A stretch of DNA of 1,821 bases from NCBI RefSeq assembly GCF_003334315.1, contig NZ_QOWR01000112.1; one strand, given 5' to 3'. This DNA comes from Escherichia coli. GTDB taxonomy: Bacteria; Pseudomonadota; Gammaproteobacteria; Enterobacterales; Enterobacteriaceae. A program made the position numbers and the translations under genes. The notes beneath the pieces were generated by a model. The model searched no databases. It saw only the letters and a list, made by a program, of their open reading frames with translations, and was not told where the DNA came from. Positions 1 through 1,821 of this stretch are shown piece by piece; the stretch's first letter is position 1; every line of letters starts with the position of its first letter.

Positions 1-75
1 GGTCGTTAGCTCAGTTGGTAGAGCAGTTGACTTTTAATCAATTGGTCGCAGGTTCGAATCCTGCACGACCCACCA
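1..75 (+). tRNA. lysV: tRNA-Lys (anticodon UUU), missing its first nucleotide at the window edge; ends in encoded CCA at 73-75
   Basis: Sequence matches the E. coli tRNA-Lys(UUU) from nucleotide 2 onward as I recall it. Anticodon TTT is at 33-35 and the T-arm GCAGG-TTCGAAT-CCTGC at 48-64. The lysV assignment (rather than a lysT-operon copy) rests only on the convergent xapR-like gene downstream, i.e. synteny inference. Confidence 0.93.
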
Positions 76-118
76 ATGTAAAAAAGCGCCCTAAAGGCGC
101 TTTTTTGCTATCTGCGAT
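58..118 (+). repeat. Direct repeat copy 1 (61 bp): tRNA-Lys 3' end (T-loop to CCA) plus terminator hairpin and trailer
   Basis: 58-118 is identical over 61 bp to 214-274 (ATCCTGCACGACCCACCAATGTAAAAAAGCGCCCTAAAGGCGCTTTTTTGCTATCTGCGAT), compared by eye. Copy 1 is the genuine tRNA 3' end. Confidence 0.9.
80..106. terminator. Rho-independent terminator for the tRNA transcript; symmetric, so potentially bidirectional
   Basis: A-tract 80-85, stem GCGCC 86-90, loop CTAAA 91-95, stem GGCGC 96-100, T-tract 101-106. It starts 5 nt after the tRNA CCA. Confidence 0.8.
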
Positions 119-213
119 ACTCAAAGATTCGAACCTGCAGCAGGTTTGAGTTGAGCGCAGCGAAACAACGGAGCCGCTCGCGGCGACGGCCCGAAGGGCG
201 AGCGAAGCGAGTC

Positions 214-274
214 ATCCTGCACGACCCACCAATGTAAAAAAGCGCCCTAAAGGCGCTTTTTTGCTATCTGCGAT
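214..274 (+). repeat. Direct repeat copy 2 (61 bp): orphan tRNA-Lys 3'-end fragment (18 nt, ATCCTGCACGACCCACCA) plus second copy of the terminator hairpin
   Basis: Identical to 58-118. Only the last 18 nt of the tRNA are present, so this is not a functional tRNA gene. The repeat period is 156 bp. Confidence 0.9.
236..262. terminator. Second copy of the bidirectional rho-independent terminator; likely also terminates the convergent xapR transcript
   Basis: Same A-tract / GCGCC / CTAAA / GGCGC / T-tract hairpin as 80-106. It lies 78 bp beyond the xapR stop codon (340-342) on the minus strand and is flanked by A/T runs on both sides. Confidence 0.7.
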
Positions 275-339: not shown

Positions 340-1224
340 CTACTGTGTCAATGCAGCCAACAGCTTAACCATCGCGGGCGTCACCTGCTGTGTTTCATAA
401 ACAATATATAAATCTGCAGGGATGCGCTGTTTGAGCGGACGGAAAATGACACCTGGCCAGTTCATTTGTGCGTAGCTGTCCGCTATCAATGTGATACCAA
501 TGCCCATACTGACCATAGCGAGTACCGTTTGCGGTTCATTAACTTCGCGAATAACAACCGGTGAAAATCCCACCTGCTGGCAAACTCGCTGCAAAAAATC
601 CCAGTCAGTGTAAACGGGCGGCATTGTAACAAAATACTCGTCACGTAGCGCTTCCAGCGGGACGGTGGAAAATGATGAGAGATGATGCTCTTCAGGCATC
701 GCCACCAGAAACGCCGATTCATGCAACCGTAAGCTGGTAAAACCAGTCGGTGGTTCTGTCGCCATTCGCCAGATCCCGGCATCAAGTTCGCGGCGTTCCA
801 GCAAGGCCATTTGCATCGCGGGCATCTTTTCGCGAAAAAGAACGTCAACGTTAGGATTTTCCCTGAGGAATCGCCGCATAACCGGGCGCATCCGTCCCCA
901 CATTGCCGTTCCCACTACGCCGAGTTCAATCCGCCCTGCTTCTCCCCGACCTATTTGTTCAATCCGAGCCAATACATTATTAGCATTCACCAGCAATCGA
1001 CGCGATTCTTCCATCAAGATTTTGCCCGCGTGTGTCAGTACGACGCTGCGCGAATGGCGAATAAAAAGCTGCGTGCCGAGTTGATTTTCCAGCTCTTTAA
1101 TATGAATGCTGAGCGGAGGCTGAGACATATTTAAACGCGCTGCTGCGCGGCCAAAATGCAACTCTTCCGCTACGGCAAGAAAATAACGGAGCAACTTAAG
1201 ATCTGTTCTGTATACGCGTTCCAT
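340..1224 (-). CDS. xapR: LysR-family transcriptional regulator (294 aa), most likely the xanthosine operon regulator XapR
   Basis: The ORF-track frame is 340-1239 (299 aa). The N-terminal region (LKLLRYFLAVAEELHFGRAAARLNMSQPPLSIHIKELENQLGTQLF) is a typical LysR-type winged-HTH and the remainder a LysR substrate-binding domain. I place the start at the second ATG (1222-1224, MERVYRTDL...) because GGAG (complement of 1234-1237) sits 9 nt upstream of it, while the first ATG at 1237-1239 has no Shine-Dalgarno. The xapR call rests on recalled sequence and on position next to lysV; it was not verified by search. Confidence 0.8.
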   Translation of the reverse strand: MERVYRTDLKLLRYFLAVAEELHFGRAAARLNMSQPPLSIHIKELENQLGTQLFIRHSRSVVLTHAGKILMEESRRLLVNANNVLARIEQIGRGEAGRIELGVVGTAMWGRMRPVMRRFLRENPNVDVLFREKMPAMQMALLERRELDAGIWRMATEPPTGFTSLRLHESAFLVAMPEEHHLSSFSTVPLEALRDEYFVTMPPVYTDWDFLQRVCQQVGFSPVVIREVNEPQTVLAMVSMGIGITLIADSYAQMNWPGVIFRPLKQRIPADLYIVYETQQVTPAMVKLLAALTQ

Positions 1225-1253
1225 AATTAAGTGCTCCATATAATAAATACATC

Positions 1254-1368: not shown

Positions 1369-1391
1369 GGTAATGACTCCAACTTATTGAT
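1369..1391. repeat. IS1 terminal inverted repeat (insB-proximal end, IRR)
   Basis: About 23 bp, GGTAATGACTCCAACTTATTGAT, matching the IS1 right terminal inverted repeat as I recall it. The insB stop codon (complement of 1384-1386) lies inside it, as in canonical IS1. Confidence 0.85.
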
Positions 1392-1821
1392 AGTGTTTTA
1401 TGTTCAGATAATGCCCGATGACTTTGTCATGCAGCTCCACCGATTTTGAGAACGACAGCGACTTCCGTCCCAGCCGTGCCAGGTGCTGCCTCAGATTCAG
1501 GTTATGCCGCTCAATTCGCTGCGTATATCGCTTGCTGATTACGTGCAGCTTTCCCTTCAGGCGGGATTCATACAGCGGCCAGCCATCCGTCATCCATATC
1601 ACCACGTCAAAGGGTGACAGCAGGCTCATAAGACGCCCCAGCGTCGCCATAGTGCGTTCACCGAATACGTGCGCAACAACCGTCTTCCGGAGCCTGTCAT
1701 ACGCGTAAAACAGCCAGCGCTGGCGCGATTTAGCCCCGACGTATCCCCACTGTTCGTCCATTTCCGCGCAGACGATGACGTCACTGCCCGGCTGTATGCG
1801 CGAGGTTACCGACTGCGGCCT
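1384..1821 (-). CDS. insB: IS1 transposase InsB reading frame, 3' portion; the N-terminal part and the insA frameshift region lie beyond the window
   Basis: The ORF-track frame 1384-1761 ([16 protein letters not shown]...[13 protein letters not shown]) matches the C-terminal ~125 aa of IS1 InsB. The complement of 1762-1821 matches IS1 sequence immediately upstream of the MDEQ codon, so I extend the frame to the window edge. One residue (YDRLRKT versus recalled YDSLRKT) suggests an IS1 variant. Confidence 0.9.

Follow-up and report, generated by a model that had tools for sequence, protein, structure and literature searches.

The window, by which we mean the whole stretch of 1,821 nt of Escherichia coli DNA that was analysed, opens inside a tRNA gene. 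Its first base already belongs to the lysV tRNA-Lys and base 1 of that tRNA lies outside the window. Comparison with complete E. coli genomes shows this to be where the valU-valX-valY-lysV tRNA operon ends. The features from the tRNA to the convergent xapR gene are as follows.

1-75, plus strand: lysV tRNA-Lys(UUU), tRNA positions 2-76 (71.1 bits with the Rfam tRNA model, cut at its 5' end; tRNA-Lys in RefSeq, following three tRNA-Val genes).
48-64: T-arm of this tRNA.
58-118, plus strand: first copy of a direct repeat, made of the last 18 tRNA nucleotides (tRNA positions 59-76, ATCCTGCACGACCCACCA) and a 43-nt trailer.
78-108: first intrinsic terminator, GCGCC-CTAAA-GGCGC, preceded by an A6 and followed by a T6 run (predicted to fold as a 13-bp hairpin).
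106-231, plus strand: RtT element (Rfam RF00391) of the terminal Lys type, degenerate.
119-125, plus strand: site of piece a, worn down to ACTCAAA; the family form would be GTGCAGG.
126-138, plus strand: 13-mer composed of the T-loop complement and of piece b, the reverse complement of the 5' strand of the T-stem.
127-151, plus strand: local hairpin in which 127-137 pairs with 141-151 around a CAG loop at 138-140, the stem being prolonged by pairs of 120-123 with 152-155.
140-150, plus strand: piece c, a direct copy of the 5' strand of the T-stem and of the start of the T-loop (GCAGGTTTGAG, against GCAGGTTCGAA in the tRNA, as read from the sequence).
153-213, plus strand: conserved RtT core, with GAGCG..GCGA, a hairpin, GCCC-GAA-GGGC (189-199) and then GAGCGAAGCGAGTC, as placed by the alignment columns.
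214-231, plus strand: piece d, a direct copy of the last 18 tRNA nucleotides (positions 59-76, CCA included), unpaired here.
214-274, plus strand: second copy of the direct repeat, 61 nt, 100% identical to 58-118.
234-264: second intrinsic terminator, the same as the first and also facing the convergent xapR.
340-1239, minus strand: xapR, convergent with the tRNA.

ARAGORN found no tRNA in the window because the first base of the gene is missing from it, and the identity of the gene is settled by the Rfam tRNA model and RefSeq. Both terminators rest on the predicted fold and on our own scan for a hairpin followed by a T run; a consensus terminator scan detected neither of them, since its stem extension absorbs the T run. 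The first one is bidirectional in form, with A6 upstream and T6 downstream of the hairpin. At about position 1369, the window enters an IS1 copy.

The spacer between the two repeats is part of an element that is already known, catalogued and annotated as RtT. RtT has been described as an RNA released from the transcripts of tyrT and other tRNA operons (PMC4986893). The RF00391 model matches positions 106-231 over its full length (model positions 1-130) with 46.7 bits, for a gathering score of 45 (E = 1.9e-7), and an "RtT sRNA" is annotated between tRNA-Lys and xapR in RefSeq E. coli genomes. The unit begins 31 nt past the CCA of the lysV tRNA-Lys, on the same strand, and ends as RtT elements do, on a copy of the tRNA 3' end (214-231 is identical to 58-75, 18 nt, CCA included). 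All the invariant columns of a 44-unit alignment (A1) are present in 153-217, namely GAGCG..GCGA, the hairpin, GCCC-GNA-GGGC and ..GAGTNATCC. The closing stem is lost. Indeed, non-canonical marks run along the outer stem in the cmscan alignment of the window unit, and the duplex between its pieces a and d is worth -3.3 kcal/mol, as compared with -3.2 when unrelated tails are used and with -9 to -26 in relatives. The window unit also scores below all of 13 other RtT matches at the gathering threshold, which span 55-107 bits. The curated model recognises Pro, Arg, Ser and canonical Lys units in the same range (55-107 bits), and the breadth of the family is within existing database knowledge.

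The same 95-nt spacer is found, identical, downstream of lysQ, the last gene of the lysT operon. A dispersed intergenic repeat of the REP/BIME, ERIC or a similar kind was considered and rejected, as the spacer occurs at a median of two places per genome and at six at most, and all the places examined adjoin tRNA-Lys. A coding role was rejected as well: no convincing reading frame was found within the 95 nt between the repeats, the tpr-like frame of tyrT-type units is absent here, and the lengths of the hairpin loops in the family vary by non-multiples of three.

The first-pass annotation of this DNA had singled out the 13-mer, and what it saw in the letters is real. In the T-arm of tRNA-Lys, positions 48-60 (GCAGGTTCGAATC) have their exact reverse complement at 126-138 (GATTCGAACCTGC). 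The match stops at both ends without extension, and no inverted match of 13 nt to the tRNA was obtained in 2000 shuffles of the 95-nt spacer, the longest one being 11 nt. The flanking repeats are exact over their 61 nt (58-118 and 214-274). The complementarity noted around the 13-mer, CTCAAA (120-125) with TTTGAG (145-150), is equally genuine and extends to 7 nt, ACTCAAA with TTTGAGT (119-125 with 145-151). The register that this pairing requires is an alternative one, at +6.5 kcal/mol with respect to the best fold.

The bases of the 13-mer also align directly to the tRNA, at 14 of 16 positions with one gap. This is possible because a T-arm reads almost the same on both strands (GCAGG-TTCGAA-T-CCTGC). 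The inverted orientation is the right one for the family since piece a, in relatives, runs on into the complement of the 3' strand of the acceptor. Judged from sequence comparison, the orientation of the segment is thus decided by the relatives only, the window alone being insufficient.

Relatives were collected by scanning one genome per species with a pattern restricted to the core. At least 120 loci were obtained, and the matches listed belong to Enterobacterales, Orbales, Vibrionales and Oceanospirillales, among other orders. Upstream of the units, the closest tRNA in the same orientation is a Tyr one in at least 41 cases, Lys in at least 31, Pro in at least 26, Ser in at least 9 and Arg in at least 7. 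At least 39 units have no detected tRNA; most of these are cut by the edge of the contig or of the locus, and the 3' end of a tRNA is still visible. In the general unit, the tRNA is followed by its trailer, piece a, a short GAGAA and piece b; some bases further on, piece c leads into the conserved core, after which come piece d (the last 18 tRNA nucleotides including CCA) and the trailer again. Piece a is complementary, in inverted order, to the 3' strand of the T-stem and to part of that of the acceptor, piece b likewise to the 5' strand of the T-stem, and piece c is a direct copy of this 5' strand followed by TTCGA. The core, of about 65 nt, sits where T-loop positions 58/59 would be.

All four pieces switch with the identity of the neighbouring tRNA. 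The stretch a-b-c reads GAGGATGAGAACCTCC..GGAGGTTCGA in Pro units, CGCCTGGAGGGTGAGAACCCCCGATGGGGTTCGA in Arg-CCG units and GAGATAGGGTGAAGAACCTTAGAGAGGGTTCA in Ser units. At tyrT/tyrV, the start of the unit, GGGGAAGGATGAGAAGCTTCGA, compares with GGGGAAGGATTCGAACCTTCGA, the reverse complement of the tRNA-Tyr T-arm and of three acceptor bases. In a first test for such a cognate relationship, based on a fixed 9-nt piece, no signal was obtained for Pro, because the inverted segment of Pro units barely enters the acceptor. That test was replaced by duplex energies and longest exact matches. According to the former, the own tail is a better partner for piece a than the tails of other identities in 7/7 classes (for instance, -25.7 versus -9.5 kcal/mol for Arg-CCG and -15.5 versus -7.7 for Ser). 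Among the matches listed, 87 of 114 units contain 8 nt or more in exact inverted match with the cognate tRNA; in the same 114, the median length of the longest exact inverted match is 9 for cognate and 5.5 for non-cognate tRNAs. GAGAA replaces the T-loop complement in 74 of these 114 listed units, which shortens the match to the T-arm of the tRNA.

The fold was assessed on the family alignment. In the 44 units, pairing of the proposed partners amounts to 86%, and it drops to 31-46% when these are slid by 1-3 columns; such column counts underestimate the Ser and Arg units, which are shifted by 1 nt in register. The helices of the core are 88-98% paired, and helix H4 displays compensatory changes, with 19 CG, 15 GC and 2 UA at one pair and 12 AU and 9 GC at another. 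The core thus has the properties of a single strand whose fold is under selection. The arms are less clear-cut. Pair counts do not separate a scheme in which a pairs with d and b with c from one in which a pairs with b and c with d (89% and 86% paired, respectively), because the T-stem is self-complementary. Where a tail has diverged from its tRNA, at 15 positions in all, no compensatory support for the a-d pairing was found within classes: piece a agrees with the tail at one of them and with the tRNA at eight. A piece a that was copied at the origin of the unit and decayed later would fit these data at least as well as selection for pairing.

We think it probable that the 13-mer is the 5' arm of a small hairpin within a degenerate RtT unit lying downstream of lysV, and that RtT units are fold-back partial copies of the 3' third of the neighbouring tRNA. 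Piece b complements the T-arm of the tRNA because it complements piece c, which is itself a copy of the T-arm. In the single strand, piece b would pair with the adjacent piece c. The predicted b-c hairpin of the window has 11 bp, G-U pairs included, and a free energy of -15.2 kcal/mol (z = -4.4, none of 200 shuffles being as stable). In a lysQ allele of E. coli (L006), 8 nt of the 13-mer are deleted and a perfect 11-bp local hairpin is retained. The first-pass annotation had proposed to check whether the inverted match is conserved at homologous loci, and this turned out to be the case: the same 13-mer is present in units of Citrobacter (L023 and L046) and Pseudocitrobacter (L034). The stretch on its 5' side varies among these Citrobacter and Pseudocitrobacter units. 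The retention of the 13-mer in three genera (Escherichia, Citrobacter and Pseudocitrobacter), without that of its 5' neighbour, could mean that the b-c hairpin is constrained.

In well-preserved relatives, piece a would pair with the tail d to form a stem that ends in NCCA and that may resemble the acceptor/T minihelix of a tRNA. This likeness may explain why the mapped 3' end of the tyrT rtT RNA falls exactly at the copied CCA. In K-12, rttR is annotated up to the A of the CCA copy in the first tyrV unit (L003, position 1567). Its annotated 5' end is 8 nt past tyrV and not at the base of the a-d stem, so that the minihelix idea covers at most the 3' end. Units would be gained or lost by recombination between the repeats formed by the tRNA 3' end and its trailer. 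For those who work on tRNA operons, RtT elements thus come out as fold-back copies of the acceptor/T-arm surrounding a covarying core, beside tRNAs of five or more identities, and this layout points either to a tRNA-like end that directs processing or to an origin by insertion in the T-loop. In the limited literature that we covered, a fold-back layout with cognate-matched arms was not found described, and no priority is claimed for it.

The window unit itself is a worn, degenerate member of the family: its piece a is eroded, its closing stem is lost and it is flanked by two terminators. When positions 107-231 are folded, the 3' tail is left unpaired, and the RtT unit folded alone is barely more stable than its shuffles (z = -2.0). 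Alleles of lysV with 0, 1 and 2 RtT units are found in E. coli. The 0-unit allele (L008) has exactly the sequence expected from a clean recombination between the two 61-nt repeat copies. A copy of the spacer (coverage of at least 80%) is present in 3240 of 5426 complete E. coli genomes, about 40% of them being devoid of a full-length copy. Natural variants fall in the 5' module. They include the above 8-nt deletion inside the 13-mer, a variant second tandem unit with two substitutions, and a T-to-C change (allele L005) that turns piece c into GGTTCGAG and brings it nearer to the tRNA. We infer that the window unit is dispensable, with little or no function of its own, and that the 13-mer has no effect on the upstream tRNA. 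The terminator that separates the unit from its tRNA speaks for a low expression of the unit.

rtT reportedly acts on the response to amino-acid limitation. It might be supposed that the window unit, too, is a functional sRNA like tyrT rtT, produced by read-through and processing, whose b-c hairpin and core act in trans, for example under amino-acid limitation. We regard this as unlikely, though it fares better than the other alternatives. The unit passes the gathering score of RtT, its core is intact and belongs to a family in which the core covaries, and the b-c hairpin is kept together with the 13-mer in three genera. The release of rtT from tRNA operon transcripts, as reported in the passage of PMC4986893 that cites Bosl and Kersten 1991, is a further point in its favour. 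However, the unit lies behind one strong terminator and ahead of another, the closing stem that defines the family is absent, and the isolated unit is hardly more stable than its shuffles. Its absence from many E. coli genomes and its variable copy number weigh against this role as well, and nothing here corresponds to the tpr reading frame of the tyrT units.

An origin by insertion is another alternative, of slightly lower standing. More than processed spacers, RtT elements would in this view derive from a small, non-autonomous, site-specific module, as its copies, relics or footprints. The module would enter the T-loop of a tRNA gene, after position 58 and before position 59, and would restore the tRNA 3' end as integrative elements do; about as improbable is the more specific proposal that a-b and c..d are recognised by a trans-acting recombinase, or are scars left by the insertion chemistry. 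Such a module would account for the presence of the same structured core at the same place beside Tyr, Lys, Pro, Arg and Ser tRNAs, the arms agreeing with the tRNA in each case, and the 13-mer of the window would be a surviving piece of its recognition site or scar. The core does occupy the same T-loop position in five tRNA identities, the units are enclosed, as att sites would be, by direct repeats comprising the tRNA 3' end and the trailer, and both their presence and their copy number are polymorphic. Core-like elements without tRNA flanks (L080 and L090-L092), chimeras in which tRNA positions 1-58 are joined straight to the core (L117 and L122), and a piece a that seems to have been copied at the origin and then to have decayed, rather than being kept by compensation, can be read in the same way. 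On the other side, no recombinase gene adjoins any of the E. coli loci, and searches of phages and plasmids yielded no credible copy. The repeated trailer is that of the host locus itself, for which unequal crossing-over is a simpler explanation, and homologous recombination between repeats of 55-61 nt suffices to change the copy number. Finally, the covariation of H4 points to a selected single-stranded fold, which double-stranded att sites would not need.

The first-pass annotation had also suggested that, in a read-through transcript, 126-138 could pair with the T-arm of tRNA-Lys; by doing so it might modulate the folding, processing or stability of the tRNA in cis. This we hold to be quite improbable. 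In the unconstrained fold of 1-275, the T-arm is paired with itself and 127-137 with 141-151. The perfect 13-nt complementarity speaks for the idea, and the forced structure, with 48-60 paired to 126-138, lies only 4.6 kcal/mol above the best fold. Moreover, the nearest-neighbour model places it 1.5 kcal/mol below the fold in which the cloverleaf is enforced. The energy model alone leaves a transient misfold of this kind physically conceivable in an unmodified read-through transcript. That piece a of relatives matches the tRNA and not the drifted tails is also what would be expected of an element pairing with the tRNA. Nevertheless, the pair probability is 0.006 for 48-60 with 126-138, against 0.99 for the local hairpin (131 with 147), and the tRNA is made and folded before the 13-mer emerges, with a strong terminator (78-108) and its T run in between. 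Against the idea are also the natural 8-nt deletion within the 13-mer, the lack of a full-length copy in some two fifths of the complete E. coli genomes, and the GAGAA that stands instead of the T-loop complement in most of the listed units. The tempting notion of a downstream anti-T-arm regulation of tRNA-Lys is unsupported and is thus removed.

The last idea of the first-pass annotation, a relic of an inverted tRNA fragment left by a past rearrangement, was sound in spirit but too narrow in scope, the fragment being part of an RtT family module that follows Tyr, Lys, Pro, Arg and Ser tRNAs and not the outcome of a local rearrangement. Taken literally, as a one-off inversion or duplication of a tRNA-Lys fragment, it would explain an inverted tRNA piece between exact direct repeats, but it is very improbable, given that the same module lies at the same place at lysQ, that the identical 13-mer occurs in other genera, and that Tyr, Pro, Arg and Ser tRNAs have versions with their own sequence next to them, always with the same conserved core.

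Our preferred reading, a degenerate unit of a fold-back RtT family, can be set beside several known systems. The direct repeats of the tRNA 3' part, the intact tRNA upstream and the polymorphic presence are reminiscent of the attL and attR sites of integrative elements. The window differs from these in having only 95 nt between the repeats, with neither integrase nor cargo, and a repeat that runs 43 nt into the trailer of the host; furthermore, the RtT core occurs at five tRNA identities in several orders of Gammaproteobacteria. No integrase or element genes were found beside the repeats, the neighbours at the E. coli loci being xapR, nadA and narI/purU, and searches of phages and plasmids with the element gave no real matches.

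tRNA-like ends such as the tRNA-like domain of tmRNA are mimics of the acceptor/T-arm minihelix. Preserved RtT units are similar to them in that piece a would pair with the copied 3' strands of the T-stem and acceptor, giving a stem of 8-13 bp that ends in N-CCA. Unlike these mimics, RtT elements have a large insert with several hairpins instead of a T-loop, and their acceptor part usually amounts to 2-7 bp. In the window unit, this stem cannot form.

The closest comparison is with the RtT units of tyrT, annotated as rttR. The four classical units of tyrT/tyrV score 133-137 bits, versus 46.7 for the window. They have in common with the window unit the core, the position 3' of a tRNA on the same strand, the tail that copies the last 18 tRNA nucleotides including CCA, the inverted and direct T-arm pieces before the core, and a tandem order in which the trailer is repeated. 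The arms of the window unit are the tRNA-Lys version of these pieces, with piece a eroded and the closing stem gone. It keeps the true T-loop complement ATTCGAA, whereas most members have ATGAGAA, and its second core hairpin is GCCGC..GCGGC instead of the CGTTGC..GCAACG of the tyrT type. A terminator separates it from its tRNA, a situation found in 0 of 29 Tyr units, and it has no equivalent of the tpr-like frame of the tyrT units. RtT-family RNAs also adjoin Asn and Lys tRNA genes in Pasteurellaceae (PMC4986893).

Within E. coli, the lysT-valT-lysW-valZ-lysY-lysZ-lysQ operon carries shortened RtT units after all four tRNA-Lys genes upstream of lysQ. They share with the window unit the same tRNA-Lys, the tail ATCCTGCACGACCCACCA and the end of the core, GGCCCGAAGGGCGAG..GAGTC, and they pass the RtT threshold with 52-60 bits. 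In contrast to the window unit, these internal units are transcribed operon spacers with no terminator. They retain piece a (GTGAAGGAT) and are devoid of b, c and GAGCG..GCGA, hence of the inverted 13-mer. The window type is the reverse of them: b and c are kept, while a is lost.

The two 61-nt repeats that enclose the 95-nt spacer behind lysV are identical in the window, unlike those of K-12, where copy 1 reads TTTTTTACTATC and copy 2 reads TTTTTTGCTATC, a single-base difference.

Window 58-274, and locus L001 1558-1774: 61-nt repeat pair with its spacer

Behind lysQ, the last gene of the lysT operon, the repeat is shorter (55 nt) and ends in GCTAT. Since the 95-nt spacer is nevertheless identical to that of lysV, one and the same RtT unit has been exchanged between these two tRNA-Lys loci. 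Each of the four tRNA-Lys genes upstream of lysQ is followed by a shortened unit.

Locus L002 1435-2381: shortened RtT units of the E. coli lysT-valT-lysW-valZ-lysY-lysZ-lysQ operon

These consist of piece a (GTGAAGGAT) and a single hairpin, together with GGCCCGAAGGGCGAG and the tRNA tail of 18 nt; neither the GAGCG..GCGA part nor the inverted 13-mer is present. They score above threshold in the Rfam RtT model solely because it borrows the T-arm of the real tRNA.

The inverted T-arm copy is altered in most units.

Alignment A1 (44 units), columns 36-61: T-loop complement region of the inverted T-arm copy

Among the matches listed, 74 of 114 units carry ATGAGAA instead of the true T-loop complement, ATTCGAA. 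The three altered bases correspond to T-loop positions 56-58, which adjoin the break made by the core in the direct copy. TTCGAAC is kept in only 11/114 of the listed units, the window's type included.

Two loci contain tRNA-Tyr/RtT-core chimeras and four contain RtT-like cores without tRNA-derived flanks.

L117, about 1000-1200: chimera
L122, row Tyrgta_L122_3105 of A1: chimera
L080 438-489: core without flanks
L090 11917-11965, minus strand: core without flanks
L091 2278-2322: core without flanks
L092 1784-1828, minus strand: core without flanks

In both chimeras, a complete tRNA-Tyr 5' part extending to the T-loop GGTTCGA is followed directly by the RtT core and then by AATCCTTCC. They resemble a tRNA gene whose T-loop has taken up an RtT core, and are most simply read as the outcome of a deletion running from the tRNA T-arm to piece c of the RtT unit that follows. 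The four unflanked cores retain the conserved RtT motifs and hairpins. That of L090 is preceded by a P-loop-like coding sequence and has GCTCAGC on either side. The RtT core may be independent of tRNA genes in some taxa.

The core search pattern is also matched by an intergenic repeat of Pseudomonas spp., TAGGCTGGYGTA-GAGCGYAGCGACAGAACGGCAGGACGTCGTTCTGCACAGC...CCCGYAGGGTGA-GGTGCATGGATGCACCTCATGAAACCCAGC.

L016, L017, L085, L094-L097: intergenic repeat, about 110 nt

At these seven loci it has neither tRNA pieces nor adjoining tRNA genes, and so looks like a repeat family separate from RtT.

At its right end the window runs into an insertion sequence.

Window 1369-1821: IS1 copy, IS1A-family transposase on the minus strand

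It opens with the terminal inverted repeat GGTAATGACTCCAACTTATTGATAGTG and lies beside a small DUF1427 gene, upstream of xapR. The corresponding place in K-12 reads xapR, DUF1427, xapB, without IS1.

Among the matches listed for loci L010-L129, it depends on the tRNA class whether an intrinsic terminator, scored by a strict perfect-stem test, separates the tRNA from its first RtT unit. It is present in 14/14 Pro-CGG, 6/6 Ser and 12 of 24 Lys cases, and in none of the 29 Tyr or 3 Arg-CCG cases. Many RtT units are therefore enclosed by two terminators, an odd arrangement for RtT, an element thought to work as a processed RNA.
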